A DNA stretch of 64,000 nt from an uncultured Gemmatimonadales bacterium (lineage in GTDB: Bacteria; Gemmatimonadota; Gemmatimonadetes; Gemmatimonadales; GWC2-71-9), in assembly GCA_963821525.1 (NCBI GenBank), contig CAWGED010000019.1, positions 576,001 to 640,000 of the forward strand. Direction: 5' to 3'. The notes below the pieces were generated by a model. The model had not been told where the DNA came from and did not search any database. It saw only the letters and a program-made list of their open reading frames with translations. Of this stretch, positions 996 through 39,457 are shown piece after piece. Position numbers and translations under genes: made by a program. The first letter of the stretch is position 1. Every line of letters begins with the position of its first letter.

Positions 996-1006
996 CACCT
1001 GACACC

Positions 1007-3645
1007 TTGACCATCGACCTCGACTATCGACCGCCCTCGCCGACCGCTACCGCATCGAGCGGGAGCTGGGCCAGGGCGGCATGGCCACCGTGTATCTCGC
1101 CCAGGACCTGAAGCACGACCGAAGGTCGCGATCAAGGTGCTGCGTCCCGAACTCGCCGCCGTGATCGGGGCCGACCGGTTCCTCTCCGAGATCAAGACCA
1201 CGGCCAACCTGCAGCATCCGCACATTCTGCCGCTCTTCGACTCCGGGCGACGTGCCGAGTCGGCCGACCTCGTTCTACGTCATGCCGTTCATCGAGGGCG
1301 AGAGCCTCGCGACCGGCTCAATCGGGAGAAGCAGCTCCCGATCACTGATGCGGTACGGATCGCCACCGAAGTCGCCTCCGCCCTCGACTACGCCCACCGG
1401 CACGGCGTCATCCACCGCGACATCAAGCCGGAGAACATCCTGCTGCACGATGGACGCGCGCTGGTGGCCGACTTCGGAATTGCGCTGGCCGCGAGCAAAG
1501 CCGGCGGCAGCCGGATGACCGAGACCGGGATGTCGCTCGGCACGCCGACACTACATGAGCCCCGAGCAGGCCATGGGTCAGCGGGAAATCACCGCCCGGA
1601 GCGACATCTATGCCCTCGGTGCGATGACCTACGAGATGCTGACCGGCGAGCCGCCGTTCAGCGGACCCACCGCGCAGGCCATCGTGGCGAAGGTGCTCAC
1701 CGAGGAGCCGCGGCCGCTGATCCCCCGCCGCCACACCATCCCCCCCGACGTAGAAGAGGCCGTCCTGACCGCGTTGGAGAAATTGCCCGCGGATCGGTTC
1801 GATTCGGTCGCGGAGTTCGCCCGGGCGATCGGCGGCGATGGCAAAGGAGTGCGCTCGCCTGGAAAGCGAAGGCCGGTCCCGGCTCCCCGCCCATCCCGTC
1901 AGCTCTACCTGGCCCTCGCCCTCGGATCAGTCGCGCTGCTCGCGGCAGGCTTCTACGCCGGTTCGCGCCGGGGCGCGAGCGATTCACCCATCAAGGGACT
2001 CGGTGTCTCCACCAAGGTCACCTGGGATCCTGGGCTCGAGATCGAGCCGGCGCTCTCTCCGGATGGTAAATACCTGGCGTACGCCGCCGGCAACACGACC
2101 AGCCTGCGGATCTACGTGCGGCAAGTGAATGGCGGACGCCCGATTCCGCTCACCGAGGATTCGCTGGAGGTGCAGACCAATCCGTCCTGGTCGGGGGACG
2201 GCTCCCGCATTCTGTTCCTTTCCAACGGCGGGGTATTCAGCGCACCTTCCGCCGGCGGGGCGGCCCGACCGGAGATGCGCTCTCCACCGGGACTGCAGAT
2301 CATCTCCGCGGTCATGTCGCCCGATGGACAGACTCTCGGATATGCCGCAGGGGACTCGGTCTATCTGCGCGATGCGTCGGGGGCCGGCCGGCCTCTGGCC
2401 CGAGTGGCCGAGGCCTCGCTGTGCCAGTGGTCTCCCCGAGGCGAACTATTGGCCTGTGCGTCCGGGAATTCCTTCTACTCACGGGTCGGCGCGTTCTTCG
2501 GCAACCTGTCGCCCAGCCGGGTGACCGTGATCCGGGTGAAGGACGGGAGGACGACGACGGTAACTGACAGTACCTCCATCAATCAGAGCCCGGTCTGGTC
2601 TCCCGATGGGAAATGGCTGTACTACGTCTCGAGCAACCAGGGGCCGAGAGACGTCTTCGCGATTCGGATCGGGCGTGACGGCCGACCGATCGGCGCAGCG
2701 ACGCGGCTTACTGCGGGGCTCGGGGCCCAGTCAATCGCGCTGTCCGGAGACGGGCGCCGGATCGCGTACGCTGCATACGTGGGAACCTCGAACATCTGGT
2801 CGCTGCCGTTTCCGCCCAACGGCGAGACCCAGGCGAACGCGGTGCCGGTCACCAGCGGATCGCAGACCATCGAAGGCGGCCGGCCCTCGGTCGACGGCAC
2901 CTGGCTCTACTATCCATCAGATGTCAGTGGCAACTCCGAATTGTACCGGATGCGGCTGCCACACGGAGAGCCGGAGCAGTTGACCACCGATCCCAGCGAC
3001 GATTTCTCCCCCAAACCTTCGCCTGATGGCCGTGAGCTCGCCTTCCATTCGTGGCGCGCGGGCACCCGCGATATCTATGTGCTCCCGCTCGATGGTGGAC
3101 CGATACAGCAGGTAACCTCCACCCCACTCCAGGAGTCAGGGCCCGACTGGTCGCCCGACGGGCGAGCGCTGGCCTACGCCATGTTTGGCCAGCCGGGAGG
3201 CATTCGAGTCGTGCGGCGGAATACGGCCGGCGTTTGGGGCACGCCGGTGGAGCGAAGCTCGGCTGGGGTCTTGCCGGAGTGGTCTCCCGACGGGCGCTGG
3301 ATCGCTTATACCAGCACATTCCTGGGTGGCTCACTCTTCATCGTTGGTCCTGATTCTGGGGCGCCCCGGCTGGTCCTGGATTCCACCAATACCTGGGGCA
3401 TCCGGGCGCAGATGGCACATTGGAGCCGGGACAGCCGGACCCTCTATTTCAAGTCGGGGGATGCCAGGGGGAACGCCGCCTTCTGGGCCATTCCAGTGAC
3501 CGGAGGCACCCCGCGTCTGCTCATCCGGTTCGACGATCCCACTCGTCCCGCCTCTCGCCCCGAATGGTTCATCGGCAAAGGCCGGATGTATTTCGCGATT
3601 CAGGATCGGCAGAGTGACATCTGGGTGATGGAGGTGCGGAGGTGA
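1007..3645 (+). CDS. K1: Ser/Thr kinase - TM - TolB/PD40 beta-propeller (frameshifts in 5' part)
   Basis: GQGGMATV G-loop, [11 protein letters not shown] and MSPEQ across ORFs 1137/1252/1555. TM LYLALALGSVALLAAGFY, repeated WSPDG motifs, C-terminal SDIWV. Confidence 0.9.
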
Positions 3646-3734
3646 AAGGGGACTTGTCCAACATCTCGCCGTCCCTCACCACCGCCCTCGCCGACCGCTA
3701 CATGATCGAGCGAGAGCTGGGTCAGGGGGGCATG
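3642..3734 (+). pseudogene. Kinase 5' stub (…[21 protein letters not shown]) truncated by a palindromic element
   Basis: GTG overlaps the K1 stop. Kinase similarity ends at GQGGM, just before the hairpin element at 3746. Confidence 0.85.
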
Positions 3735-3745
3735 GTGCGCCGGTC

Positions 3746-3847
3746 CGTCGCTAAAGCGACGACTCGGCTATTGTCGCTAAAGCGACGTGACTTGGGAGGT
3801 AGGAGTCACTTCAGTGACATCAGCCGAGTCGCGGCTTGAGCCGCGGA
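3746..3847. mobile_element. Miniature non-autonomous derivative of the IS200-like element (both ends, no transposase)
   Basis: 3746-3786 matches the reverse complement of 14579-14619, and 3805-3847 matches the reverse complement of 14081-14124. Only 18 nt separate the two ends. Confidence 0.8.
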
Positions 3848-3883
3848 CCGGCAGACTATAGACTCGCAACACACGACCGGCGA

Positions 3884-6236
3884 TTGACCATCGACTCTCG
3901 ACTCGCCGCCGCCCTCGCCGACCGCTACCGGATCGAGCGGGAGCTGGGCCAGGGCGGTATGGCGACGGTGTATCTCGCCCAGGACCTGAAGCACGACCGC
4001 AAGGTCGCGGTAAAAGTGCTGCGACCCGAGCTGGCCGCGGTGCTCGGCGCCGAGCGATTCCTGGCTGAGATCAAGGTCACCGCCAATCTCCAGCATCCCA
4101 ACTTGCTGCCGCTCTTCGACTCGGGTGAAGCGGGTGGCTTCCTCTACTACGTCATGCCGTACGTCGAGGGAGAGACGCTGCGAAGCCGCCTCGAGCGCGA
4201 GCGGCAACTCCCGGTCGACGAGACCTCCCGCCTGATCACACTGATGGCCGGAGCACTCGACTATGCCCATGCCCGCGGGGTGATCCATCGCGATCTCAAG
4301 CCGGAAAACATCCTGCTCCAGGCCGGCCAGCCGGTGATCGCCGACTTCGGCATCGCACTGGCGGTGGCCCAGGCCGGCGGCTCCCGGGTTACCGAGACCG
4401 GACTCTCACTCGGCACTCCGCACTACATGAGCCCGGAGCAGGCGGCCGGCGAGCGCAACATCGATGCGAAATCCGACCAATACGCGCTCGCGGCGGTGAC
4501 CTACGAGATGTTGAGCGGCGAGCCGCCTCACACCGGCCCCACTGCCCAGGCCATCATCGCCCGGATGATGACGGAGAAGCCCCGGAGCCTGCAGGCGACC
4601 CGTTCCAACGTGCCGGTGGGGGTGGATCTCGCCGTCGGGCGGGCGTTGGCCAAGTCACCGGCCGACCGGTTCCCGTCCTGCGACGCCTTTGCCCAGGCGC
4701 TGGTTGCCGGCATGACCTCGGGTGCGGCTACTGTCGCCGACGCGGCTGTCCCACGGCGTCGCGGGCGATGGGTCGCCGCCGCCATCGCCCTGGTTGTGTT
4801 GGCTGGTGCGGCCCTGGGACTGACACGCTATCTGGGTGGAAGCGCCAGCGACCATTGATTCGATTGCGGTCCTCCCGCTCGACAACTATTCCGCCGACTC
4901 CACCCAGGACTACTTCGCCGAGGGGATGACGGATGAGCTGACCAGCGACCTCGCCATGATCAGCCAGTTGCGGGTCACCTCGCGCGGGTCGGCGATGCAG
5001 TTCAAAGGCAGGAATCGCCCGCCGACCCCGGAGATCGCGAAGGCCCTCGATGTCGACGCCGTTGTGGAGGGCTCAGTGTCCCGCTCCGGTGATCGGGTGA
5101 GGATCACCGCCCAGCTGATCGATGCCAGGGCCGACCGGCATCTTTGGGCCGAGACCTTCGAGCGCAATTCGAGCGACGTACTGGCACTCCAGGCCGAGCT
5201 GGCGTCGGCCATCGCCAGTGCGATCAACGTGCGGCTGACGCCGGGGGAGCAGTCCCGCCTCTCGGCTGCGCCGACCGTGGATCCGGGAGCCCACGACGCC
5301 TACCTCAAGGGGCGGTTCTTCTTCAATCGTCCGAGCGACGAGAACCTGCAGAAGGCCATCGTACAGTTCAACGAGGCGATCAAGCTGAGCCCGAACTTTG
5401 CCCCGGCGTATTCGGGGCTCTCGGATGCCTACACCTGGGCGGCCTACAACGAGGGATTCATTCGTGCCAGCGAAGCGAAGCCCCTGGCGAAAGCCGCCGC
5501 GGAACGGGCGGTTCAGCTCGACAGCCTGTCGGCGGAAGCCCACACCTCGCTGGGGGTCTACCTCGCTTGGTTCGACTACGACTGGGACCGAGGCGAGCGG
5601 GAACTCCGTCAGGCGATCGCCCTCAATCCCAGCTACGCCTACGCGCACGACCAGCTGAACCAGCTGCTGGGAATCATCGGTCGCTTCGACGAGGCGATTG
5701 CCGAGGGCCAACGGGCCATCGCGCTCGATCCACTGTCGCCCTCGATCCTGGAGGACCTGGCGACGACGTTGATCTACGCCGGCAAGGCGGCGTCGGCGCT
5801 GGAGCTTGCGAAAAAAGCCGCGGAGCTCGACCCGACCTTCTTCTTCCCGCCGGCTACGGAGGGGATTCTGGCGCTCCAGACCGGCAACTACCGCGAGGCC
5901 ATCGCGAAGTTTGAGCGCTCGCGGGCCCTGGATGCCCCGCCGTTCGTGACCGCCTACCTGGCGTACGCGTAGGGCATCTCCGGTGACCGCAGCCGCGCGA
6001 TGGCGACGCTCGGAGAACTCCAGAAGATGTCGCACGGGGAGGAGGCAGCCCCGTTCAACCTGGCACTGGTGTATCTCGGCCTCGGCGATCACGCGCGCGC
6101 GCTCGACTATCTCGAGCAGGCACATGCGGCCAGCTCGGAGATGCTGGTCTGGCTCAAGGTGGACCGGATCTACGATCCGCTGCGGTCGGAGCCGCGCTTC
6201 GTAGCCCTGATGAAGCGCCTGAACTTCGTCCAATGA
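3884..6236 (+). CDS. K2: Ser/Thr kinase - TM - TolB-N-like domain - TPR repeats (frameshift ~4850, in-frame TAG at 5970)
   Basis: HRDLKPEN and DFG motifs, TM WVAAAIALVVLAGAALGL, IAVLPL…DYFAEGMTDEL, TPR helices, C-terminal DPLRSEPRF. Confidence 0.9.
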
Positions 6237-6282
6237 GGCGCACGGGCTGAGCGGCTTGAGGAATCGGCGGCTCGGCACTATT

Positions 6283-6360
6283 CGGCAATCGGCAATCGAT
6301 AACGGGCAATAGCCTGACAACCTGACACCTGACACCTTGACCATCGACCCTCGACTATCT
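6283..6360. repeat. Heptamer repeat ladder (GGCAATC)n-(CCTGACA)n-(ACCATCG-like)n
   Basis: Visible 7-nt periodicity. The same succession of units occurs at ~977-1030 and ~11405-11470. Confidence 0.75.
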
Positions 6361-8619
6361 TCCGCGCTCGCCGATCGCTACCGGCTCGAGCGGGAGCTGG
6401 GCCAAGGCGGCATGGCGACAGTGTATCTGGCCGAGGATCTCAAGCACCGACGAAAGGTCGCGGTGAAGGTGCTGAAACCCGACCTGGCCGCGGCACTCGG
6501 CGCTGAACGCTTCCTGCGCGAAATCGAGACAACCGCGAATCTCCGCCACCCTCACATCCTGCCGTTGCTTCGACTCGGGCAGGTCATGGCGTCGACGGAC
6601 GATCTTTCTCTTACTACGTGATGCCGCTGGTGGAAGGAGAGTCCTTGCGCGATCGACTGAAGCGGGAGACGCAGCTGCCAATCCCGGACACGGTGGCGAT
6701 CATTCCGCGAAGTAGCCGACGCGCTGGCCTACGCGCACGGTCGAGGCGTGATCCATCGCGATATCAAGCCGGAGAACATTCTGCTCGAACGGGGCCATGC
6801 CGTCGTCGCAGATTTCGGTATCGCGCGTGCGGTGAGCACTGCGGGCGGCGAGAACCTCACCCAGACCGGCATGTCGCGTGGGCACTGCCGGCCTACATGA
6901 GTCCGGAGCAGGCCCTGGCCGATCAATACGCTCGACGCCCGAAGCGACCAGTACAGCTCTGGGCTGCTGTCCTCTACGAGTGCCTGACCGGCGAGATCCC
7001 CTTCGCCGGCAGCGCCGGTGCCATGCTGGGCGCAGCGGATAACCGAGTGCACCACCGTCCGCGCGCAACAAGCGGCCGGAGGTTACCGCCCAGGTTGACC
7101 ACGCCCTGTCGTACGCGCATTGAGCCACCGATCCATCGGCGCGGTTTGCCTCCTGCCAGGAACTGGCCGCGGCGCTGGTGGCGCCACACTTCGCTCCCAG
7201 GCCGGGTGCGCGGCACTGGCGCGGCGAGGCATCGTTGTCCTGCCATTCGCCAACCGGAGTCCCGACGCCGACAATGAATACTTCAGCGACGGGCTCACCG
7301 AGGAGATCATCGCCGACCTCGCCCGGATCAAGGCGCTGAGTGTCATCTCCCGCACCTCGGCGATGCAACTCAAGGGGACCGACAAGAACGTGAAGGTCAT
7401 CGGCCGGGAACTCGGCGTGCGCTACGTGCTGGAAGGAAGCGTGCGGAAGGCCGGCTCGAGCCTCAGGATCACCGCACAACTGGTCGATGCCGACACCGAC
7501 ACACCGCTCTGGTCGGAGAAGTACAGCGGCACCATGGACGACGTGTTCGAGGTGCAGGAGCGGGTGTCCCGCGAAATCGTGAAGGCGCTCGGCGTGACGC
7601 TGAGTCCCGACGAGGACCGTCACCTGGCGCAACGGCCGATCGAGAACGTGCAAGCGTTCGAGCTGTACCTGCAGGCGCGTCTCGAGTTCCGGCGCTACGG
7701 CGCCTCGATCGACCACGGCTTGGCGTTGCTCAACCGGGCCATCGAGATCGAAGGCGAAACTCCGCCGCTTCAGGCACTCGTCGCCTGGGCCAAAGTCTCC
7801 CTGGTCCGCTCCGGCCATGCACCCGATGGGCGACCGCTGGACGAAGCCGAGGCGGTGGCGAAGGCCCTGATCCTGCGTGCTCCGGAGGCGCCCTACGGCC
7901 ACGCCCTGCTGGGATTCATCGGCTATGAGCGCTGCCGAATGGCCGATGCGGTGCGCCATCTGCGGGCCGCACTCGAACGCGAACCCAATGATGCCGATGC
8001 CTTTTTCTTTCTCGGCGTTTCCTACATCGCAGCCGGCCAGGAGGCTCTGGCTGCGGAGACAGCGGCTCGGCTGATGGCATCCGATCCACTTTCACCATTG
8101 GGGTGGATGTTGACCGGCGTCGTGCCGTGGTTCATGGGGCGGCTCGGGGAGGGATTGCCAAGCCTGGTCCGAGCGGTGGAGCTGGACCCCGAAAACCTCC
8201 TGGCGCGTTGGTGCCTTGGGTACACCCATACCCTCGTGGGAGATGTGGAGGCGGGGACGAAGCATGCCGAGGTGCTCCGAACCAAATCGCCGGACCTGCC
8301 TTACACTCGCCATCTTCTGGCCCTGGTCGCGGCACTCTCCGGCCAGAGCGAAGCCGCTCTCAAACACCTGGCATCGGTGGAAGGTCTCGACGGCCACCAC
8401 AAGATGCATCTGGCCGAGGCCTTCGCGATGGCCGGTGACATCGACCGGGCACTCTCCCTGCTCGAGGAGGCGGTCAACCAGGGCTTCCATCCCTATCGCT
8501 TCATCGCGGAGTATTGTCCCTTCATGGCTCCGCTCCGCGGATTGCCGCGGTTCGAGGCGCTTGCCGCCCGCGCCCAGCGACTCACCGCGGAGTTCGGTAT
8601 CGCGGGAGGTAACTCATGA
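6337..8619 (+). CDS. K3: Ser/Thr kinase - TolB-N-like - TPR, no TM seen (multiple frameshifts in kinase part)
   Basis: [15 protein letters not shown]…[16 protein letters not shown] is readable in the DNA at ~6754-6777. [27 protein letters not shown] followed by TPRs. Confidence 0.85.
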
Positions 8620-8646
8620 GCGACGCGAGGCCCGACTCGCCGCATA

Positions 8647-8695
8647 CCGGTCCGTCGCTAAAGCGACGACTCGGCTATTGTCGCTAAAGCGACGT
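8647..8695 (+). repeat. REP-like double hairpin (GTCGCTAAAGCGAC x2), a single end of the IS200-like element
   Basis: 49 bp identical to 3740-3788. Confidence 0.85.
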
Positions 8696-8714
8696 CTCAC
8701 ACACACGACGTCCA

Positions 8715-11374
8715 TTGACCATAGACCATCGACTATCGACCGCGCTGTCTGACCGCTACCGCATCGAGCGGGAGTTGGGCCAGGGCGGCATGGCCACGGT
8801 CTACCTCGCCGAGGATCTCCGAGCATGGCCGCAAGGTGGCTATCAAGGTCCTCCGCCCCGAGCTCGCCGCGTCGATCGGGGCCGAACGGTTTCTGCGGGA
8901 GATCAAGACGATCGCGAAGCTGCAGCATCCCCACATTCTCGGTCTCATTGATTCCGGAGAGGTCGAGGGGGCCGCGTACTACGTGATGCCCTTCGTGGAA
9001 GGGGAATCGCTGCGGGACCGGCTCGATCGCGAGAAGCAGCTCGCCATCACCGACGCGGTCCGCATAGCCACCGAGGTCGCCTCGGCCCTCGACTATGCGC
9101 ACCGCCACGGGGTGATCCACCGCGACATCAAGCCCGAGAACATCCTGCTGCACGATGGCCAGGCCCTGGTCGCGGACTTCGGGATCGCACTCGCCGTGAC
9201 TCAGGCCGGGCGGCACCCGGATGACCGAGACCGGCCTGTCGCTCGGCACGCCGCACTACATGAGCCCCGAGCAGGCGATGGGCGAGCGCGAGCTAACCCC
9301 GCGGAGCGATGTCTACGCCCTCGGTTGTCTGACCTTCGAGATGCTCGCTGGAGACCCGCCCTTCACCGGGCAGCACCGCACAAGCCATCGTCGCCAAGGT
9401 CCTGAGTGAGAAACCGCCTTCGATCCGGCGGCTGCGCGACCGGGTTCCCGAATCGGTCGAAGAGGCGGTGTTCGTCGCCCTCGAGAAGCTTCCGGCTGAT
9501 CGGTTCGCGACCGCCGCCGAGTTTGCTACAGCACTGAACGGAGGCGGCACCAGCGCCCCGCGCCACGGCAGCACCAGTGCGAGGAGCCGAATCGCCGAGC
9601 CGCCGAGCCGTCGAGTAGCATTCCTCCTGCTCCTCGCCCTCATGCTCGGCGCTGGCTGGTTCCTCGGGCGTCGAAATAGCAACGCCGCCGCAGGACCGCC
9701 GTCGAGTCGTCTCGCGATGTTGTCACCCGCTCTGGGAGGGTCTGGGGCCGGCGGATTGCATCGCCAGCTGACGCTCACGCCCGACGGTTCCGCGGTGGTC
9801 TATGTCGGCGCTTCGGTTCGACAGGGGGCGACCACACTGTGGATTCAGCGAATGGACCAGCTCGAGCCCGCGCTGATTCCTGGGAGCGAACTCCTTCTCG
9901 CCCCTCAAGTGTCGCCCGACGGACGATGGCTCGCGGCCCAGAACGTCGCCGGCGATGTCATCCGCTTCCCCATGCAGGGCAGCACTGCCCAGCCGGCCCC
10001 TGTGTCCCGCGGGTTCTCCTTCTTTGCCTGGGGTCCCGACGGGAGTCTGTGGATTACCCGGGCACCGTTCCGCACAGTCGAGCGGGTGGCCCAAGGAAGT
10101 GATTCACTCGAGGTGCGCATCAAGGACCTGAGTCGAGGCCAGTACATCCAACAGATACTCGATGATGGGAGGCGCGCTGTCGTAGTTCAGGGCGACGGAT
10201 CTTCGAGTGGCCCATGCTTCATTATGGACCTCGCAACCGGCCGGTTGACCCCGCTGATCGAAACGCCCATCACCGCCGCGCGCTATGCCGCGGGATATCT
10301 GATTTACGCCCGGCCGGATGGAACCCTCCTCGCCGCTCCGCTCGATGCGCGTCAGACTCGAATCACCGGCGAGGCAGTTACCGTCGCAGAGGGAGTCTCC
10401 GTGACCGGAGGCGGCGACGCCCAGTTCGCGGTCGCGCCCAGCGGCACCTTGGTCTACGTCCCCGAGGAGCCGAGGTCACTGGTGTTCGTCGACCGGTCCG
10501 GATCGGCGCGGTCGGCGACCGAAGCGCGCCAGAACTTCCATGCCCCCTCGTTTTCGCCCGATGGGCGCCGCGTGTCGGTGGATTTCGTTTCCGCCGACGG
10601 CCGGGACGTGTGGATCCTCGATCTGGACCAGGGGACGCTTTCCGTGGTACCTTCGATCGCGACGGACACGACGCGGTGTGGACCAGAGACGGAAAGCAGA
10701 TCACCTACACGTCGTACCGCTCCGGCGTCTTCGGGGTCTATCGGACCCGCCCGGGCAGCGGCGCGCCCGCCGAATCGCTGCTGGCCTCGCCGTCGCTGGG
10801 CTACACCGGCCAGTGGCTGCCCGACGGTAGCGGGCTCGTGACCGTGACCTTCGACCTTCAGCCCCGATCGGGTCAGGACATCGGCCTCGTCACCCACGGC
10901 GGCCACGGACCGATCGAGCCGATCGTCGCCACGCCGTATCGGGAGTTGTACCCCTCCCTTTCTCCCGATGGCCGCTGGCTGGCGTTCGTCTCCGATCAGT
11001 CGGGACAGAGTCGAGTGTATCTGCGCCCGCTCCAGGGAGACGGTGATCAAGTTCAGATCTCCCAGGGCAACGCCGATGAGCCGGTCTGGGGGCCGGATAG
11101 CCGGGAGCTGTTCTATCGCGCCACCGATACCGGGCGACCCGAGCTGATTGCGGCCAGGCTCGAAACCACTCCGACCCTTCGAGTCCTTGAGCGGCGCCCG
11201 CTCTTCTCGGTCGAGAACTACGTACCGGCCACGCCACACGCCAGCTATGCCATCTCACCCGATGGCAAGACCTTCGTGATGGTCCAGCGCAACCCGGCGA
11301 GCCGCATCATGGTAATCCAGAATCTGCCGGGTCTGGTGGGCCGGCTGCGCGACGCGCAGAGTGCGCCCCATTGA
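8715..11374 (+). CDS. K4: Ser/Thr kinase - TM - double beta-propeller (frameshifted)
   Basis: Kinase motifs in ORFs 8715/8836/9221. TM VAFLLLLALMLGAGWFL, SPDGRWLAF repeats, C-terminal IMVIQNL. Confidence 0.9.
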
Positions 11375-11445
11375 GTCGGGGCCTCAGCCGCGAACTAGCG
11401 GCATATCGGCAACCGGCAATCACCTGACCCCGACACCTGACACCC

Positions 11446-13868
11446 TTGACCATCGACCATCGACTATCGACCGCGCTGTCTGACCGCTACCGCATCGAGC
11501 GGGAGCTGGGCCAGGGCGGCATGGCTACGGTGTACCTCGCACAGGACCTCAAGCACGATCGCAAAGTGGCCGTGCAAGCTGCTGCGTCCGAGGAACTCGC
11601 TGCGTCGCTGGGGCAAGGAGCGCTTCCTCCGCGAGATCAAGGTCGCGGCCAATCTGCAGCATCCGCACATCCTGCCGTTGTATGATTCGCGGTGAGGCCG
11701 ACGGGGTCTGCCTGTACTACGTCATGCCGCTATCGTCGAAGGCGCAGTCGCTCCGCGACAAGCCTGCACGAAGGAGAGGCGAGCTGCCGATCGGCGGACG
11801 CGGTGCGCATCCTGCGCGAGGTCGCCGACGCGCTGACCGTAAGCCCACGGTCACGGCGTGGTTCACCGCGACATCAAGCCGGAAAACGTGATGCTGCGCG
11901 GCCGGCACGCCGTGGTGATGGACTTCGGCGTGGCTAAGGCGCTCAGCGCGGCCCGGGCGGCAGTCAGCTCACCACGATCGGCGTCGCCCTCGGGCACGCC
12001 GACCTACATGGCGCCGGAGCAGGCAGTGGCCGATCCCCACGTGGATCATCGACGGAAGGCGCGACCTCTACGCGCTTCGGCGTGGTGGCGTACGAGCTGC
12101 TGGCGGGACAGCCGCCCTTCACCGGGACCACCCAGCAGGAGATCCTGGCGGCGCACGTGACCGCGGACGCGCCGAGCCGGTCGCCAACCACCGGCCGGCC
12201 ATGCCGCCGGCGCTGGCCGCCGCGGTGATGCGGTGCACTGGAGAATCGGCCCGCCGATCGGTGGCAGAGCGCCGAGGAGTTGATCACCCAGCTCGAATCG
12301 GTCTTGACCCGAGCGGCGGGATAACGCCGACGGCAACGTCTGCCGGTCACCGCGGTTCCCGCACCAGGGCTCCCGTCGCACGCTCGCAGCGTTCGCGGTC
12401 GGGGCGATTCTGCTGGTGGCCGGGGTCGAGGCGTGGCGGGTTGACCCACCACGCCGGGGAGAATCGTCCGGTGTTTCCTCCTCCGGGATCGCCAGGCGCG
12501 TCGGCTGTCTTTGCCTTTGCGAGTCGCGGAGCGCGGGACGACCTCGGATGCGTACCTGGGCGACGGCATGGCGACCGACTTGACCAACGACGCTGGCCGG
12601 AATGTGACCGGCCTCCATGCGTATCCGCGCGAACGTTCGCGCCTTCGCCCTGCGGGGCGAAGACCGCCCGCGAAGATGGGGCGGCGCTCACGGCGGACGC
12701 CATGGTGTCGAGGGTACCGTCGGCAAAGTCGAGAACCGGCTGCGGGTGACGGTGTCAGCTGGTGAACGTCGCGGATGAGGCGGTATCTCTGGAGTCAGCG
12801 ACTACGACGTGAGCGCGAAAAGGATCTCTACGCCCTCCAGGATTCGGCCGCGGCCGCGATCGCGATCGGCGCTAGGGGAAGTCGGTCTCGGCCGGCGAGA
12901 CGATCCGGCTCTCGTCGGCGCACCGCACCGCGAACCCGGAGGCCTACGATCTCGTCCTGCGCGGCCAGTTCCTGACGGAGCAGAACACCGAGGCCAGTCT
13001 CCAGCAGGCCATCGCGCTGTTTGAACGAGCCGCCGCTCTCGATTCCACGTACGCCGATCCGTGGAACGGGATCGCTCAGGCCTGGATCTTCCTCGCCGAT
13101 ACCTACCTGGCCCCGCGCGCGGCGGTTCCTCCGATGTCTGCCGCGATCGACAAGGCTCTGGCGCTCGATCCCAGGTCGGCGTGGGCGCACGCACTCAAGG
13201 GAAGCCTGCTCTCCGCGTATCTCCGTGACTACGCGGCCGGGGAACGGGAGTATCTCGCGGCAATCGCCCTGGACAGTACCACGACATTCGGCGGCGACTA
13301 TGGCTGGGTGCTGCATTCGCGCGGCCTGGAACCGATTCGGCATTGGCGGTTTTTCGCCGGGCGCGGCGGCACAATCCGTTTGCCTTCGCCCCGCTGAATG
13401 GAATCGTGGCCGTCATGAGTAATGCGGGGATGCTGGACAGCGCCATCAGTGCTTTGCCGCGCCCTCCAACAGATGGGCCCACACTCATGCGGAGATCAGC
13501 TGCTGATGCAGATGGGCCGGGCACGAGAGGTGGTCGTCGCGTGGAAGGCGAAGCCCTCCACCACACCGGATGAGACGCTGGACCTGGCCGAGGCGTTGGC
13601 GCTGGCCGGCGATCCCGCGGGCGCGCGACGCGAGCTCTCGGCGGCGCTCAGCGCCGCGGGGTCTCGCTATGTCCGCGAGGACAACGTCGCGGCCGTCTAC
13701 CTCGCCCTGAAAGACACCGCCAGGACACTGGAATGGCTCGGACGGGGCCTCGATGCCCAGGCGGCGAACATGGCTACGATCAATCGCAATTGGAGATTCA
13801 AGCCGCTGCATGGCTACCCGCCCTTCGACGCCATCGTGAGAAAGGCGGGGTTGCAGCCGTCGCCATGA
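11446..13868 (+). CDS. K5: Ser/Thr kinase - TolB-N-like - TPR (very heavily frameshifted; possible pseudogene)
   Basis: [15 protein letters not shown]…, [43 protein letters not shown]-terminal [10 protein letters not shown]. Confidence 0.75.
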
Positions 13869-13993
13869 ACCGACTGGCAGGGCGGTGAGGGGAGCAGTCG
13901 ATAGTCGATGGTCGATGGTACCGCACCGTACGGGAACGTAGTGTTTGCGCCGGTGTCCCAGGATTTGACCCCATATCCATGGACCACCGATCA

Positions 13994-14077
13994 TTGACCA
14001 TCGACCATCGACTATCGACCGCGCTGTCTGACCGCTACCGCATCGAGCGGGAGCTGGGCCAGGGCGGCATGGCCACG
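13994..14077 (+). pseudogene. Kinase 5' stub ([28 protein letters not shown]) interrupted by the IS200-like element
   Basis: First 80 bp identical to the K5 start (11446-11525). Kinase similarity ends 3 nt before the element end at 14081. Confidence 0.9.
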
Positions 14078-14523
14078 CTTTCCGCGGCTGAGAGCCGCGG
14101 CTCGGCTGATGTCGCTGAAGCGACGGGCCGGGCGGTCCAACCCGGTATGGCCTCATCGGGATGGTGCGTGTGCTGATGGCGCACATAGGCTGCCGCCACA
14201 CCCCGTTGGCGAGGACTCACACTGATCACGCTGTATCCTTTGGCCCATCGCAGGGCGGGGTCCTGCAGTGGCGCGCCACGATTGATCAGGGTAGCGGTGC
14301 CGCCCTTCATGCGTTGCAGCAGTCGGGGAATGACGGTAGAAGGATGCAGGCGCACCAGCAAATGCAGGTGCGTGGTCACGATACCGAGCTCGAGTACCCG
14401 CGCCCGCTCCTGCCGAGCAATAATGGGGAGATGCTTCCAGAGGTACTCGGCACGGGGCCGATCTATGGTCGGCTGACGATCACGGGTGGTCCAGACGATA
14501 TGGACCAGGAGCTGATGATGCAT
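14035..14523 (-). CDS. tnpA: IS200/IS605-family Y1 HUH transposase (TnpA / RAYT-like), no TnpB
   Basis: N-terminal HIVWTT strand, HUH motif HLH, and W..GY…SVS……YV..Q..HH catalytic Tyr motif. Confidence 0.9.
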   Translation of the reverse strand: MHHQLLVHIVWTTRDRQPTIDRPRAEYLWKHLPIIARQERARVLELGIVTTHLHLLVRLHPSTVIPRLLQRMKGGTATLINRGAPLQDPALRWAKGYSVISVSPRQRGVAAAYVRHQHTHHPDEAIPGWTARPVASATSAEPRLSAAESVAMPPWPSSRSMR

Positions 14524-14619
14524 ACATCAGGATCGACGCATCCCTCGATTGCGGCGGTACCATTCCAACGCACCGCAGGTCGCTTTAGCGACCTCAGCCG
14601 AGCCGTCGCTTCAGCGACG
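14081..14619 (-). mobile_element. IS200-like element: tnpA flanked by two REP-like double hairpins in inverted orientation
   Basis: Left end CCGCGGCTGAGAGCCGCGG-CTCGGCTGAT-GTCGCTGAAGCGAC (14082-14124). Right end GTCGCTTTAGCGAC-CTCAGCCGAGCC-GTCGCTTCAGCGAC (14579-14618). Confidence 0.8.
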
Positions 14620-14647
14620 AGCGCGGGCGGCGATCCTGAGAATCACG

Positions 14648-17350
14648 ATGCTTGACTCGCTCTCCCGCCTTACCGCCGCCCTCGCCGACCGCTACCGCAT
14701 CGAGCGGGAGCTGGGCCAGGGCGGCATGGCCACGGTGTATCTCGCCCAGGACCTGAAGCACGAGCGCAAGGTCGCGGTCAAGGTGCTGCGACCGGAGCTC
14801 GCGGCGGTGATCGGCGCCGAGCGATTTCTGAGCGAGATCAAGACCACGGCGAACCTGCAGCATCCGCACATTCTGCCCCTGTTCGACAGTGGGCGGACGG
14901 GCGGCAACGGGGACGAGCGGGCGGACGACTTCCTGTTCTACGTCATGCCGCTGATCGAGGGCGAGTCGCTCCGCGACCGGTTGAATCGCGAGAAACAGCT
15001 CCCGATTGGGGATGCGCTCCGCATCGCAACCGAAGTCGCGAGTGCGCTGGACTATGCCCACCGCCACAACGTCATCCATCGCGACATCAAGCCCGAGAAC
15101 GTCCTGCTGCACGACGGGCGCGCGCTGGTGGCCGACTTCGGAATTGCACTGGCCGCGAGCAAGGCGGGCGGCAGCCGGATGACGGAGACCGGGATGTCGC
15201 TCGGTACTCCGACCTACATGAGCCCCGAGCAGGCGATGGGAGAACGGGAGATCACCGCCCGCTCCGACGTCTACGCCCTGGGCGCCATGACCTACGAGAT
15301 GCTGCTGGGGGAGCCGCCGTTCACCGGGCCCACGGCGCAATCGATCGTGGCGAAGGTGATGACCGAGAAGCCGGCTTCGCTCATCTCGCGGCGGGATCGG
15401 ATCTCACCGGCCGTCGAGGATGCGGTGCTGACCGCGCTGGAGAAGCTGCCGGCCGACCGGTTCGGGAGTGCAGCGGAGTTTTCGGCGGCGTTGAATGGGG
15501 ATAGCGGCTCGGCGACTCGGCGGCTCGGCGGCTCGGCCCCGCAGCCCGAGGCTCGGCGGGGCGTAGGCCGGCCCGCGCTTTATGCGATGCTGGTCATCAC
15601 CTCGCTGGCCGCGGTCTTCTTCGCCTGGCGCGCCGCGCATCACCCCGCCGGCCCGGTCACCCGACTCACACTCGACCTGCCGGAACTCAGGGTCAATCAC
15701 CTCAGCTACTACGGGAGCGCCCTCGCGGTGGCTCCCGACGGCTCGTCGCTGGTTTACGTCACCGAGAGTCCGGGCACGCCTACCCGGCTCATGGTGCGGG
15801 AACGCGGGAATCTTACGCCGCGGCTGCTCGAAGGGACCGACGGAGCGGATGGGCCGTTCTTTTCGCCCGACGGCCGCTGGGTGGCTTACACCGCCGCCAA
15901 GAAGATCTTCAAGGTGCCGGTCGCAGGGGGGACTCCGGTGCTCGTCGCGGATGCGGCGGCCAATGAGCTGGCCAGCGGAACCTGGCTGGACGACGGCCGG
16001 ATCGTCTTCACCAATCAGTCCTTCGAGATCCTTACCGTGCCGGCGGCCGGGGGGCAGGTTTCCCGGGTCGTACCACCACCCGTCAGCTTCGGCTGGGCCT
16101 TTCCCACCGCGCTGCCGGTCAAGGATGTCATCCTGATCACCGAGTGCAGCAACAACTGCTCGCGGATGAACCTGTTGGCCATGAATCTGAAAACGCTGGC
16201 GCGGGACACCATCCTTCCCAACACCTCACGGGGCTTCTACCTCCCCACCGGTGATCTCCTCGCGGTGCAGCAGGATGGCAACGTGGTGGCGGGACATTTC
16301 GATCTCGGCAAGCTGCGATATACCGATCCACCCGTCGTGGTGCAGAGCGCAGTCCAGCTCGAACTCGGCATCACGCCCGAGCTGGCCGTGGCAAATGACG
16401 GGACGCTCATCTACCTCGCCGCCAATCAGACGGGAACCGATGCGACCATCGCACGGGTGGATCGGACCGGCAAGGCTCGGGTGCTCGATCCCGACTGGAC
16501 GGCGCGGGTCAGCAGCCTGGCCCTCTCGCCCGACGGGCGCCGCGTCGGGATCAGCACCCTCGAGCAGTCCGGCAATGTGCTCTGGATGAAAGAGCTCGAC
16601 GCCGGCCCCCTGACCCAGCTCAGCTTCGACGGCACCATCAACTACCGCCCGTCGTGGCGCCCCGACGGACGCAGCATCAGCTTCACCTCGGACTTCAAGG
16701 GACTGGCCTCGTACCTGTACACGATGCGGGCGGATGGCAGCGACAAGCCGGAGCGAGTCCTGCCCAACGAACCGCTCCAGGTCGATGAAGCGGTCTGGTC
16801 ACGGGATGGCCGCTGGCTGGTGTACCGGACCGGCGTCACCGGAGGCTCGCGCGACATATACGCCCGGCAGCTCTCGGGCGACACCAGCCGGATCACCGTC
16901 GCGGCCGGCGCCGCCGATGAGTACATGGCGGCGCTTTCGCCCGACGGCCGCTGGATCACCTACGTCTCGGTCGAATCAGGCAAGGAGGAGGTCTACGTCC
17001 GGCCTTTTCCCGAGACCAGCAGGGCGCGGTGGCAGGTCTCCGCGGCGGGCGGATCCAATCCCGCCTGGTCGCACTCGGGACGTGAATTGTTCTATGTCGA
17101 CCGGGCCGACAGCCTGATCGCGGTGAGCGTGACCGGTACCACCGACTTCCAGATCGGCCCCAGGCGCGCGCTGTTCAGCACCCGGCCATTCCTGCTGCTG
17201 CCATTTCACCGCACGTACGACGTGTTCCCCGACGATCAATCGTTCCTGCTGCTCAAGCGTCCGTTCACCGCCACCACCGAGGCCAATCGGCTGACGGTCG
17301 TGCTGAACTGGTTCAGTGAGGTGAAGGCGAAGGTGAGACAGGGGAGGTGA
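14648..17350 (+). CDS. K6: Ser/Thr kinase - TM - double beta-propeller (intact)
   Basis: Single ORF with all kinase motifs, TM ALYAMLVITSLAAVFFAW, SPDG repeats and C-terminal VVLNWFSEV. Confidence 0.95.
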   Translation: MLDSLSRLTAALADRYRIERELGQGGMATVYLAQDLKHERKVAVKVLRPELAAVIGAERFLSEIKTTANLQHPHILPLFDSGRTGGNGDERADDFLFYVMPLIEGESLRDRLNREKQLPIGDALRIATEVASALDYAHRHNVIHRDIKPENVLLHDGRALVADFGIALAASKAGGSRMTETGMSLGTPTYMSPEQAMGEREITARSDVYALGAMTYEMLLGEPPFTGPTAQSIVAKVMTEKPASLISRRDRISPAVEDAVLTALEKLPADRFGSAAEFSAALNGDSGSATRRLGGSAPQPEARRGVGRPALYAMLVITSLAAVFFAWRAAHHPAGPVTRLTLDLPELRVNHLSYYGSALAVAPDGSSLVYVTESPGTPTRLMVRERGNLTPRLLEGTDGADGPFFSPDGRWVAYTAAKKIFKVPVAGGTPVLVADAAANELASGTWLDDGRIVFTNQSFEILTVPAAGGQVSRVVPPPVSFGWAFPTALPVKDVILITECSNNCSRMNLLAMNLKTLARDTILPNTSRGFYLPTGDLLAVQQDGNVVAGHFDLGKLRYTDPPVVVQSAVQLELGITPELAVANDGTLIYLAANQTGTDATIARVDRTGKARVLDPDWTARVSSLALSPDGRRVGISTLEQSGNVLWMKELDAGPLTQLSFDGTINYRPSWRPDGRSISFTSDFKGLASYLYTMRADGSDKPERVLPNEPLQVDEAVWSRDGRWLVYRTGVTGGSRDIYARQLSGDTSRITVAAGAADEYMAALSPDGRWITYVSVESGKEEVYVRPFPETSRARWQVSAAGGSNPAWSHSGRELFYVDRADSLIAVSVTGTTDFQIGPRRALFSTRPFLLLPFHRTYDVFPDDQSFLLLKRPFTATTEANRLTVVLNWFSEVKAKVRQGR

Positions 17351-20194: not shown

Positions 20195-22541
20195 GCACGA
20201 TTCCGGAATCACTCATTGCCGCCCTCGCCGACCACTACAGGATCGAGCGGGAGCTGGGCCGGGGCGGGATGGCGGTCGTCTATCTCGCCGAAGACCTGAA
20301 GCACCACCGGCGGGTCGCGATCAAGGTGCTCAAGCCGGAACTCTCCGCGATAGTCGGGAGCGAGCGGTTTCTCCGGGAGATCGAGATCGCGGCGACGCTG
20401 CAACATCCTCACATCCTTCCGCTCTTTGACTCCGGACAAGTGACCGCAGGTCATCCCGAGCGAAGCGAGGGACCCCAGTCGTTCCTCTACTACGTGATGC
20501 CATTTGTCGAGGGTGAATCGCTACGGGAGCGGCTTACCCGGGAGACGCGGCTTCCCCTCGACACCGCTCTGCAGATCATCCGCGAAATCGGGAGTGCGCT
20601 GCAGTACGCCCACGAGCACAATGTGGTGCATCGAGATGTCAAACCAGAGAACGTCATGCTGTCCGGAGGCCATGCCGTCGTGGCGGACTTCGGCATCGCC
20701 CGGGCACTGCAGGCCAATGCGGAGCAGCTGACCATCACGGCATGGTGGTTGGTACCCCGCAGTACATGAGCCCGGAACAGGCCAGCGGTGAGGTCGTGGA
20801 CGGCCGGTGCGATCAGTACAGCCTGGCTTGCACCTTGTACGAGATGCTGGCCGGCAAGCCGCCCTTCGTCGGGCCCACGCCCCTCGTGGTCCTGGCCCAC
20901 CACTCGGCCGCGCCGATCCCGAGCTTGCGTGGGAGCCGGGAGGACGTGCCGGCAGCGGTAGCGGGTGCCGTTGCGAAGGCGATGGCCAAGCGGTCTGCGG
21001 ATCGCTTCCCCTCGATACCCCAGTTTCTCGATGCGCTGGATCCGCGGCAGATGACCGCCGTCATGCCGGTCTCGTCTCAACGCCGCTCGAGGCAAGCGAC
21101 TGCGATCGCGGCTGGCGCACTTCTGGTTGCGGCCTTGTGGTGGGTAATCATGAAACGCGGATCCCACCCGGTGCCGAGCGGAGTCACCGCGATCGCGGTG
21201 CTTCCCTTCCTCGATTTGGCCGGTAGCCCGGACACGACCTACCTGGGACTCGGAATGACCGATGGGCTCATCGCCGATCTGGCTGAGGTGGGCTCGCTGA
21301 AGGTCATCTCACGCTCCTCCGGTGCGACGGCCCAGGGCGCGGCACGATCGCTCGCGGATCTGAGCAGCGAGCTGGGAATTCAAGGCGTAGTGCAGGGCTG
21401 GATCGGCAGGATCGCCGATACGGTTCGCGTGAGGCTGCGATTCCTTCACGCCCCAGACAGCACAATACTTTTTGCGAAGGATTATCAGCGTCGCCTCGGT
21501 GAGCTGCCGGACCTGCAGCGGGAGATCGCGACGGCCCTCACCGGCTCAATCGGCGCAAGCGTCAAGGGGACCGAACAAAGCCGGCTCGCTGTACGCGGCG
21601 CAGTGGAGCAGCGCGCCTATGAAGCGTTCCTTCGCGGCCGGTTCTACCTGGAGCAGGAGGAAGTGGAACTGGCACGGGCCCAGTTCGAGCAGGCGAGCCG
21701 TATCGCACCGGACTGGGCCCCTCCTTACGTGGGCATGGCGAACTACTACACATCGCTTCCTTTCTACACCGACGTTCCACCGGCGGTGGTGCTGCCCAAG
21801 GCCCGTGCGGCGCTGGTCCATGCCCTGCAGCTGGACGAGACCCTGGCCGAGGCGCACGCGGTCAACGCCTACATCCGGGCCTACTATGAATGGGACTGGC
21901 GCGCGGCAGAGCAGGAGTTCAGGCGGGCCCTCGAGCTGAGGCCCAACTATGCAGACGCGTACTTTTCCTACAGTCGCTTTCTGGCCTCACAGCGCCGCTT
22001 CGATGAGGCCATTGCCCAACTCGGCCACGCCGTGGAGCTGGACCCGCTCTCTCTTTCCCTCCAGACCAACCGCGCCCTGCTCGAGTACTTCGCCGGACGC
22101 TACGACAAGGCCAAGCAGGGGCTCATGGACGTGCTCAAGAGCGACTCCACCGACAGGCTGTCCAAATGGGGGCTGGCACTGGTTGCCGAGCAGCAGGGGC
22201 GGGTGGATGAAGCGATCACGATCCTGGAGCGATTAGGCGGGACTAGCCTCAACACCAAGTCTTCGCTGGGTCATGCCTATGGGCTTGCGGGGCGAGCCAC
22301 GCAGGCCCGGAGTGTCCTGCGCCTCCTTCAGACCGAAGCCGAGCGCAGCTACGTGCCATCCTATTTCTTTGCACTCGTGCACACCGGGCTGGGCGAGCGT
22401 GATCAGGCGCTCCGGTATCTTGAAAAGGCTTATGAGGAGCGTTCTACCGTGTTGGCCTATGTCCAGATCGATCCGCGATTGGCCTCGCTCAGGACGGAGC
22501 CACGGTTTGTGGCTCTGGTCCGGCGTCTCAACGGCGAGTGA
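20191..22541 (+). CDS. K8: Ser/Thr kinase - TM - TolB-N-like - TPR (frameshift ~20740)
   Basis: [11 protein letters not shown] and [35 protein letters not shown], TPRs, C-terminal [13 protein letters not shown]. Start overlaps the K7 stop. Confidence 0.92.
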
Positions 22542-31514: not shown

Positions 31515-31585
31515 CACGACTCACGACTGCAGACTCTCAACTCTAGACCCACGACCAACGACCATTGACCCTCGACCAGCGATCT
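31515..31585. repeat. GAC-phased degenerate heptamer ladder (CACGACT CACGACT GCAGACT CTCAACT CTAGACC CACGACC AACGACC ATTGACC CTCGACC)
   Basis: Direct 7-nt periodicity in the sequence. Confidence 0.8.
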
Positions 31586-31677
31586 CCTCCGCACTCGCCG
31601 ACCGCTACCGCATAGAGCGGGACCTGAAGCACCACCACAAGGTGGCGATCAGAGCTCCAGCCGAACTCGCGTCGTAA
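31561..31677 (+). pseudogene. Kinase 5' stub with the Gly-rich loop deleted
   Basis: Reads [31 protein letters not shown]…; [14 protein letters not shown] (14 codons) is missing. Confidence 0.8.
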
Positions 31678-31958
31678 GTCTTGAGTCGTAGGACCCACGA
31701 CCACTGACCATCGACTATCGACGGCCGCCCAGCGACTTTTCCGACGGCCGAGACCAATGATGGCGGGCAGAGGTCATCCGGGTAGCTTTAGAACGCACTC
31801 CTGATCCAAATAACGCGAGACAGACCAGCACCCCCGCTTGGGGGAATAACATGCTGAGCCGGCGGTGAGGTAACCGTTATAACGCTCCTCGACACCAAGG
31901 CACGCTCGGAGCGACCGTCTTTCCCGTCTCCCCGTCTCCCATCTCCCAGGGTTAGGCC

Positions 31959-37414: not shown

Positions 37415-38293
37415 ATGACCCAGCCTGTCATCGCGCCGGACACCACGGCGCGGAAGCCACGGGACGACGAAATCGACGTCTATGGGATCACCCATCCCGG
37501 CAAAGTGCGCAAGGACAATCAGGACCATTTTCTGATCTGTTCGCTCCGACCCGGGGTCGTCGTCCACCACACCAGCCTGCCCGACACGGGGCGGTGGTCC
37601 GGGGCGGAGCGATTAGCGTTTCTCGCCATGGTCGCCGATGGGGTGGGCGGGAGCGCCATGGGCGAGGAGGCGAGCCGACTGGCGGTCGCCGGCATCACGG
37701 ACTATGTGACCCAGTGCGTGCACACCTACTACACCGCCGACTCCAGCAATGACGCCGGCTTTGCCGACGCGCTCGTCGAGGCGGCGATGCAAGTGCACGC
37801 GCGAATCGTGGAGCAGACCCGGGAAGCGGACGACCCGCGAGGTGGGTCCACCACGCTGACCCTGTGGATTGGCGTGTGGCCCCGGGCCTACCTGCTGCAG
37901 GTGGGAGACAGTCGCTGCTACACGCTCCGGGAAGGAGTCCTCACCCAGATCTCACGGGACCAGACGATGGCCCAGGAGCTGATCGACGCCGGCGTGCTCA
38001 AGCGCACCGAAGTCCGTCGTACCCGCTGGGCGCACGTGCTCTCCAGCTCCATCGGAGGACACCAGACCGCGCCGGTGGTTACCCGCATGGACCAGGAGTG
38101 GGGCAGAGTCGGCCTTCTCTGCAGCGACGGTCTCACCAAACACGTCTCGGACGAACGGATCGCCGAGCAGCTGCGGAATATGAGTTCGGCCAAGCAGGTC
38201 TGCGAGGCGCTGCTGCAGGATGCTCTGGATGATGGCGGGACCGACAACATCACCATCCTGGTGGGACGACCGGTTCGGAAAGACCTCGCGTGA
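37415..38293 (+). CDS. PP2C/PPM-family Ser/Thr protein phosphatase (soluble, PrpC/Stp1-like)
   Basis: GKVRKDNQD, VADGVGG, VGDSRCY, LLCSDGL and GGTDNIT motifs. Confidence 0.95.
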   Translation: MTQPVIAPDTTARKPRDDEIDVYGITHPGKVRKDNQDHFLICSLRPGVVVHHTSLPDTGRWSGAERLAFLAMVADGVGGSAMGEEASRLAVAGITDYVTQCVHTYYTADSSNDAGFADALVEAAMQVHARIVEQTREADDPRGGSTTLTLWIGVWPRAYLLQVGDSRCYTLREGVLTQISRDQTMAQELIDAGVLKRTEVRRTRWAHVLSSSIGGHQTAPVVTRMDQEWGRVGLLCSDGLTKHVSDERIAEQLRNMSSAKQVCEALLQDALDDGGTDNITILVGRPVRKDLA

Positions 38294-38361
38294 CGGATGC
38301 CTCTCCGGCGTTGACCGCCGCCCTCGCCGACCGTTACCGCATTCTGCTGGAGCGGAAATGA
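38290..38361 (+). pseudogene. Kinase 5' stub (MTDASPALTAALADRYRILLERK*) bridging phosphatase and dehydratase
   Basis: GTG overlaps the PP2C stop, and its TGA overlaps the dehydratase ATG. Confidence 0.8.
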
Positions 38362-39334
38362 AAACCACCGAGTCCGTTCGTCCCATAGACCTCGCCGAGA
38401 TTCGCGAGGCCCAACGTCGCATCGCGGGAACCATCTTCCGTACGCCGCTGGTCCGTCTCGAGCTGGGACCCGGCTTTCCCGACATTCGGCTCAAACTCGA
38501 AGTGCTTCAGCCCATCAATGCCTACAAGCTGCGCGGCGCGGCCAACGCGGTCGCCATGCTGTCCGACTCGGAACGAAAGCGTGGGGTCTGGACGATCAGC
38601 GCCGGCAACGCGGGACAGGGAGTCGCCTACGCCGCGAGAGCAGCCGGTGTCCCCTGCACCGTTGTCGCGATCGAAACCGCTCCCGCCTCAAAGCTCGAAC
38701 GGATGAAGGCGCTCGGCGCCAAACTGGTGCTGGTGCCCTACGAGGTGGCCTGGAAGGCGCTCGACGAGCGGGCCTAGCCGGGGTCGAAGGAACCTTCATT
38801 CACCCCTTCGATGACGACAATTTCATCGCCGGGCACGCGACGATGGGGCTGGAGATTCTGGAGGACGCGCCGGAGACGGCGGCAGTTATCGCCGCCATTG
38901 GTGGCGGTGGACTCATCACGGGCGTCGCGAGTGCCATGAGAGCCATCAAACCCGAGATCAAGGTGTGGGGCGCCGAACCGGAGACCGCTGCTCCGCTGTC
39001 GCTCTCCCTCGCTAGCGGGTCCCCTCAGTCATTCAAGGACTGGAAGGCATCGTTCGTGGATGGTGCCGGCGGACAGAGTGTCTTCCCCCGGATGTGGGAG
39101 CGGATGAAACCGGTGGTGGATGGTTGTATTGTTGTAACGCTGGACGAGACGAAACGGGCCATGCGATTGATGGCCGAGAAGGCGCGAATCATCGCGGAAG
39201 GCGCGGGATGCTTGCCGGTCGCGGCCGCTCTGACCGGGAAAGCGGGACAAGGTCCCATCGTCGCCATCGTCTCCGGCGGGAATATCGACCTGCAGAAATT
39301 CTCCGATCTGATTGGCACGACGCCGCGTGCATGA
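38358..39334 (+). CDS. PLP-dependent threonine/serine dehydratase (or serine racemase-like), no ACT domain; interrupted ~38775
   Basis: LKLEVLQPINAYKLRGA PLP-lysine motif, SAGNAGQG, IGGGGL, VSGGNID. Confidence 0.9.
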
Positions 39335-39457
39335 CGGCGTCGGCAGTCGAGTGTCGATGGTCGATAGTCATCAGTCCTGACCCGGGACTCAAGACTCGGG
39401 ACGCATCATTCAGGCCTGTCGAATCCAAGTACTAATCACGTCTACCGACATCGACCA

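Follow-up and report, generated by a model that had tools for sequence, protein, structure and literature searches.

A doublet-associated TnpA lineage and duplicated gene starts in a kinase gene array of the Gemmatimonadales

A hairpin doublet, with or without tnpA, separates a start stub from a leader, a second start and the rest of the gene at three unrelated targets: Ser/Thr kinase genes, tRNA-Ser and a gene of the HDAC family. The junctions are fixed for each target and lie near the foot of a hairpin. To account for them, we lean towards a REPtron-like system whose insertion at a gene start leaves the gene restored, and in which TnpA would carry out the joining step. The window, that is, the whole stretch of 64,000 nt analysed here, lies on contig C19 of genome G000; the named relatives are all Gemmatimonadota.

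The cassette and its setting

A tandem array occupies most of the window. Its Ser/Thr kinase genes, which end in PD40 or TPR tails, share a conserved 5' block encoding a 20-residue segment. The cassette and related units are listed in Table 1.

Table 1. Coordinates of the tnpA cassette and related features in the window.
Feature	Position (nt)	Strand	Remarks
Second unit: kinase stub (3642-3735), then inverted doublet pair (3746-3846)	3642..3846	+	REPIN-like, without tnpA
Single doublet	8653..8693	+	upstream of a kinase; no clear stub
Kinase 5' stub	13994..14077	+	TTG start; 28 residues, ends at GGMAT
tnpA, Y1 HUH transposase	14035-14523	minus	PF01797, E 1.3e-17; 162 aa
tnpA core	14137-14523	minus	129 aa; 33-aa tail is read-through of left doublet
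Left doublet	14078..14124	+	4-nt foot, hairpin 1 (14082-14100), CTCGGC-TGAT linker, hairpin 2 (14111-14124)
Right doublet	14577..14624	minus	hairpin unit 14579-14619; inverted relative to left doublet
Leader, ATG (14648) and second copy of kinase 5' block	14625..14734	+	replacement start; compare G458
Intact Ser/Thr kinase with PD40 propeller	14648..17350	+	PF00069 + PF07676

The first 80 nt of the kinase stub (nt 13994–14073) are identical to the start of the preceding kinase (nt 11446–11525; 75/75 in the best match), and nt 14030–14077 recur as nt 14687–14734, identical over 48 nt. Because the kinase downstream keeps a complete second 5' block, a simple insertion of IS200 type into a kinase was rejected. 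In genome G458, an orthologous kinase body (91%) has a different leader and no cassette. The second unit in the window is followed by a kinase at nt 3884, and the same junction recurs several times along the arrays of G458 and G483. The cassette junction is also present in independent metagenome contigs (L022, L023, L024 and L040), and Logan contigs from other runs cross the cassette (nt 14044–14704 and 14060–14647); joints mapped from reads were mostly cross-paralogue noise, and only contigs spanning the cassette were used. An assembly artefact caused by repeats might be suspected in so repetitive an array, several kinases of which are frameshifted, but the same junction in independent contigs and runs, and in divergent genomes, refutes this explanation.

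Several of the kinase frameshifts in nt 1000–13900 look like assembly errors, with one-base indels in Logan contigs of other runs at nt 1121, 4847, 12757, 12786 and 13448. Inverted heptamer arrays (ACCATCG type) at nt 13880–14010 and 39335–39486 form a small insert, which L023 lacks at nt 13880–14010, and heptamers of this type provide the TTG start of many array kinases. Nt 38290–39490 comprise a kinase stub, a gene of the PALP family (threonine dehydratase-like) split over two ORFs, heptamer repeats and a kinase, and represent cargo between duplicated starts, without doublets. Another palindromic repeat family (GTCATCCCGAGCGAAGCGAGGGA), which we take to be linked to GIY-YIG genes, is found at nt 20446–20472 and 52299–52325, and between kinases in relatives too.

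The tnpA reading frame has no stop ahead of the left doublet and is open through to nt 14035. With a PF01797 core, the HUH motif (H52-L-H54) and a catalytic tyrosine (Y113-x-x-x-Q117), the product belongs to the TnpA-Y1 (HUH) superfamily; it scores 59.6 bits against NF033573 (cut-off 55) and only 22 bits against the RAYT model NF047646 (cut-off 80). The earlier note had described an IS200-type motif, and Y---Q rather than Y---NP is indeed present, but the full tyrosine segment (YVRHQHTHH, i.e. Y---Q--HH) is the signature given for subclass 1.2 in the accessible text of PMC6006769. There is no space for a tnpB gene beside tnpA, and the description of a TnpB-less tnpA between two inverted hairpin-linker-hairpin ends holds good. 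Ratios of dN/dS against 11 relatives are 0.06–0.18 (one extra pair had a dN of 0 and one was saturated), which points to purifying selection. The structure model has a pLDDT of 93.5, with ISDra2 TnpA as the top fold match, and the protein is predicted to be catalytic.

The doublet-associated tnpA family occurs in 63 of 401 genomes, and in 60 of 166 within the family to which the window's organism belongs. These tallies, and the count of strict doublets below, take in rows from five genomes flagged as unpublished (G057, G182, G457, G494 and G521), on which no specific claim rests. Hairpin doublets flank most members, and the subclades occupy different loci. G000 has two members that are 51% alike, the second of which (L001, C12:49437–49817) has a variant hairpin and no adjoining kinase. 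Many relatives (P0021, P0026, P0027 and others) are proteins of 270–300 aa with two tandem Y1 domains.

Each of the two cassette doublets consists of a hairpin, a CTCGGC linker and a GTCGCTNNAGCGAC hairpin. The left and right doublets have folding z-scores of about -3.5 and are more stable than all 200 shuffles. GTCGCTNNAGCGAC occurs seven times in the window (0.02 expected) and 11 times in the genome, and further copies at nt 3746–3846 and 8653–8693 bear out the earlier observation that the ends are copied elsewhere in the array. Strict doublets number 1–29 per genome in the 39 genomes (of 221) that have them, far fewer than classical REPs. Across the family (343 distinct doublets), the base at the second position ahead of hairpin 1 tracks the first base of the linker (T in 72 of 88 with A, C in 142 of 255 with G), indicating that the stem extends below a one-base bulge and that the element starts approximately 5 nt ahead of the visible hairpin. 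In the window the element starts immediately after GCCACG. The hairpin does not begin 3 nt after the GGMAT codons, as had been noted: kinase identity ends at nt 14077 and the hairpin starts at nt 14082, a 4-nt gap (CTTT). The commonest feet are GAGCT, CGAGT, GAGTC and CGGTC, and the doublet family lacks the GT[AG]G tag that marks the foot of RAYT-associated hairpins. The doublet pattern had no matches in viral contigs, and a plasmid search gave a single match (30%).

Doublets also adjoin tRNA-Leu, -Gln, -Phe and -Asn genes (L167, L169, L180, L319, L366, L367, L388, L398 and G000:C14:2890). Two near-identical tnpAs of subclass 1.2-like type (L002 and L003; G000:C12:7145 and C1:35924) have GC-rich hairpins of their own (CGCCCCGAAGGGGCG type), unlike subclass 1.2 as described, without REPs, in the accessible text of PMC6006769. 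Since their flanks are identical, they perhaps reflect a duplicated part of a contig.

Stubs at kinases, tRNA-Ser and an HDAC-like gene

The flanks of 226 distinct pattern-derived doublets were surveyed, 37 of which had no flank. Among the 189 scored, 49 are within 700 nt of a kinase start (chance expectation about 1.7%, estimated by hand from a total of 53 motif hits over 4.33 Mb), 12 are near a tRNA and 128 are near neither. Doublets are enriched near kinase starts, in line with the earlier note's reading, yet they are not exclusive to them. A first flank count (85 hits among 329 doublets; control 21/600) had mixed stubs with tandem element repeats and so was redone; 43 'other' hits in the redone count were mostly repeat-on-repeat and were not counted, and two further stub candidates (L126 and L112) were rejected as element repeats.

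Short kinase 5' blocks make up 49 of 180 distinct blocks. A doublet is linked to 27 of these stubs, 26 of which place the hairpin arm at +52/+53 as counted from the Asp codon, although the 27 are related sequences rather than independent events. In the remaining 22 no doublet was detected; their ends are scattered between 17 and 92, and among them are cases of decayed doublets, of other inserts and of frameshifts. In the window's array, stubs at nt 3642, 13994 and C19:574130 are doublet-linked while those at nt 31594, 38323 and C19:556748 are doublet-free, so that other processes also make stubs in the array. One of the doublet-free stubs at nt 31551–31680 and G000:C19:556748 has an internal deletion. 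In L025 and L026, a GTAG-tagged REP-like hairpin is inserted within a kinase stub, and in L321 and L324 REPINs lie ahead of kinases that have no stub.

Of the rows in a quick 142-row tree, 22 are tnpAs with a kinase start no more than 700 nt away; 21 of them share a single clade of 28 rows (support 93). The kinase junction is common to tnpAs that are only 70% identical and must therefore be old; the confinement to a single clade and a single junction site agrees with an early origin in one or a few events, which recombination then spread.

The same scar is found outside the kinases. At C5:984235, a 37-nt 5' half of tRNA-Ser and the whole tRNA are separated by the same doublet. Among the 14 tRNA-Ser loci displayed, four (G000, G458, G483 and G446, from two genera) have this stub-doublet-tRNA layout, G108 has a decayed stub, G297 has a doublet upstream without a stub, and eight have neither. 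The G446 locus reads doublet, leader, 5' half, then doublet, leader, whole tRNA, the first of these doublets being an additional one ahead of the stub; as its two leaders differ, a simple tandem duplication of recent date does not explain it. In L061 and L090, which belong to another tnpA subclade, an antisense cassette is placed between a stub of 21–23 nt and an intact HDAC-family gene. The order in L090 is the shared upstream flank, a 23-nt stub, the cassette and then the gene start again, while L404 (90% aa) is the empty site, having the same upstream gene as L090, an HDAC-like start at the position of the stub, and no insert. The HDAC-like start motif is present in 14 of 29 loci, none of which has a stub in the 150 nt shown. 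The stubs of L061 and L090 each match the start of their own gene, the start in L061 being different. Deletion cannot account for the empty site and the stubs copied from their own gene, which indicate that the gene start was duplicated on insertion.

Deletion has to be weighed at the kinases as well. An element upstream of one kinase could have cut in the previous kinase, removing its body and leaving its start as a stub. This would suit the leader of the window stub, which matches that of the downstream gene at only 15 of 36 nt, and the 15 of 19 stubs that are not copies of their own gene's leader. The other four (L141, L164, L165 and L226) do copy their own gene (33–35 of 36 nt) and are left unexplained by adjacent deletion, as are the single-copy targets (tRNA-Ser and the HDAC-like empty site), and we consider it improbable.

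It is likewise improbable that the window copy of TnpA targets the Gly-loop codons of kinases and actively makes the stubs of the array. Such targeting would agree with the fixed kinase junction, with the location of six of the eight strict doublets of G000 in the array, and with the kinase-linked clade, in which 21 of 28 rows adjoin a kinase start. The junction is old, however, the window array has three doublet-free stubs, and the scars at tRNA-Ser and the HDAC-like gene mean that the kinase Gly-loop is not a special target. Together with the 128 doublets that lie elsewhere, these scars led to the rejection of kinase-specific targeting.

The junction offsets are -1 at the tRNA, -1 to -10 at the kinases and -13 at the HDAC-like gene, and no single cleavage motif was found that explains the junctions at all three targets. 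The tetranucleotide GTCT occurs near each, a post hoc hint only, as just 63 of 136 kinase blocks have it.

Large Gemmatimonadales kinase arrays reshuffle at the shared 5' block. In three contigs about 97% identical to the window, the leader of the stub at nt 3642 is joined straight to the tnpA cassette, and the intervening block of about 10 kb with four kinases, bounded by the two stubs, is missing. The kinase bodies behind the cassette are non-orthologous: the tnpAs of L029 and L032 are at least 93% alike while the C-terminal parts of the kinases are 30% alike. The place of stub and REPIN units within the array varies in G458 and G483, and G483 has one stub-REPIN pair in tandem; despite several stub and doublet units there was no tnpA hit in the arrays of these two genomes, both 75% complete. 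The G483 array is scrambled relative to the window at plain 5' blocks as well, so reshuffling alone does not implicate TnpA.

Possible routes to a duplicated start

Under the explanation we lean towards, TnpA acting on single-stranded DNA and bound to a doublet upstream of a gene would cut at the 5' foot of hairpin 1 and also 20–90 nt into the gene, and would join the gene start to the hairpin foot, either through a circle or by unequal sister exchange, with IS608-like chemistry. IS608 itself is excised to a circle. The unit, now tailed with a gene start, would re-enter empty alleles or paralogues via that homology, by TnpA or by homologous recombination, and entry would leave the native start as a stub and supply a new one. 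Joining by the TnpA family would be rare and spread by homologous recombination easy in the kinase array, where one old junction, located at the Thr/Val codons that follow GGM, may have been spread and reshuffled through recombination in the conserved 5' block. Precursor-like states with a doublet and no stub (G297, L321 and L324) and tandem states (G446 and G483) fit such capture and re-entry. According to the accessible text of PMC8266576, TnpA_REP makes flexible cuts 5' and 3' of the hairpin. Against this model speak the number of targets (three only, each possibly a single event), the relatedness of the 27 kinase stubs, the differing junction offsets, the doublet-free stubs, the reshuffling of the array at 5' blocks in general and the unlike leaders of G446.

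A doubtful but serious alternative is that TnpA does no more than spread doublets into intergenic spaces. Host repair (through hairpin-induced breaks, template switching or microhomology) would then generate the stubs, which would persist because a duplicated start rescues the gene. This would accommodate the array's doublet-free stubs and its elements of heptamer repeats, the short stretches of homology that some junctions show between target and element foot, and the stubs in genomes without a kinase-linked tnpA. Host repair does not readily predict that the junctions hug the hairpin-1 side and are fixed for each target, or that the own-gene duplications at the HDAC-like gene are merely 21–23 nt, a length that is short for RecA-type conversion.

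The earlier note had called this enzyme the best candidate in the window for creating the stubs. The fixed site and the enrichment near kinase starts are in its favour, whereas the scars at the other two targets, the doublet-free stubs, the stubs of G458 and G483 without an array tnpA, and the second family member in G000 are not. The TnpA family is a good candidate for having made the junction; the window copy is not tied to making the stubs of the array. More speculatively, this TnpA lineage may practise homology-tailed homing by means of the captured start of the next gene, and nicks at the junction may promote swap, gain and loss of kinases, making it a domesticated diversifier of the array. 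A homing unit of this kind would enter any allele or paralogue without damage, and the 3' ends from nicks would lie in the conserved 5' block. The insertion route is directly testable, given an enzyme of 129 residues, a substrate of 43 nt and three natural junctions, one of which has an empty site.

Relation to known systems

In a 39-row tree, with reference rows from Gemmatimonadota picked by profile score and motif (the IS200-like rows by NF033573), the lineage falls outside the RAYT-like (100/99), IS200-like (98/100) and 1.2-like (94/97) branches, the bootstrap not being settled; its deep position is not fixed by either this tree or the quick 142-row tree. The IS200-like assignment of the earlier note was not upheld by the tree, nor did a RAYT assignment emerge. 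The enzyme appears to come from a lineage of class 1 that is associated with doublets and separate from IS200 proper, subclass 1.2 and the RAYTs.

The system in the window works like a REPtron, although it is not a RAYT. REPtrons and REPIN-RAYT systems, as described in PMC8266576, PMC3337134, PMC3733652 and bioRxiv 2021.07.10.451892, likewise have a low-copy conserved Y1 nuclease between inverted palindromic repeats, which are dispersed in intergenic DNA, have a bulged stem and also form REPIN-like and tandem arrangements. The window enzyme differs in being of class 1 (Y---Q, not Y---NP), in lacking a GTAG tag and in having two-hairpin ends; moreover, its tnpA family is found at several unrelated loci, and the units carry a duplicated gene start. 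RAYT-like genes are not known to move. The spread of REPs and REPINs in vivo is stated to be unresolved in PMC8266576.

With subclass 1.1 of the IS200/IS605 family (ISDra2, IS608), the window TnpA has in common the fold, the catalytic motif, a passing NF033573 score and hairpins at both ends, but its lineage lies outside the IS200 clade, with low numbers of divergent copies, inverted ends and no tnpB. Canonical IS200/IS605 insertion causes no duplication. Subclass 1.2 (Quentin 2018, PMC6006769, accessible text) resembles the window TnpA in its Y---Q--HH signature, low copy number and absence of TnpB. The WQ motif and C-terminal domain of that subclass are missing from the window TnpA, which has WAKGY and HHPDEAIPGW where these were compared, by eye, with the 1.2-like L003 and L253, and REP-like repeats, absent from subclass 1.2 in the same text, flank the window family. 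In the tnpA_REP-procA system of picocyanobacteria (bioRxiv 2020.03.09.984088), a Y1 gene is also antisense to an expanded family with a conserved 5' part; it was proposed to be a diversifier, though the authors' note says that causality is not supported. That enzyme is of subclass 2.1 and faces the 3' end of procA, and no stubs are described (bioRxiv 2020.03.09.984088).

In the main texts surveyed, there was no account of a start-duplicating insertion or of this lineage; the supplement of PMC6006769 may list members. Islands that integrate at tRNA genes also bring with them part of the gene they enter, which is thereby restored; they are driven by integrases and mostly restore the 3' part. In the window family, an HUH enzyme is associated with the 5' part, and protein genes are targets too. 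REPtron-like systems would then comprise two independent lineages, this second one standing on the IS200 side of the family.
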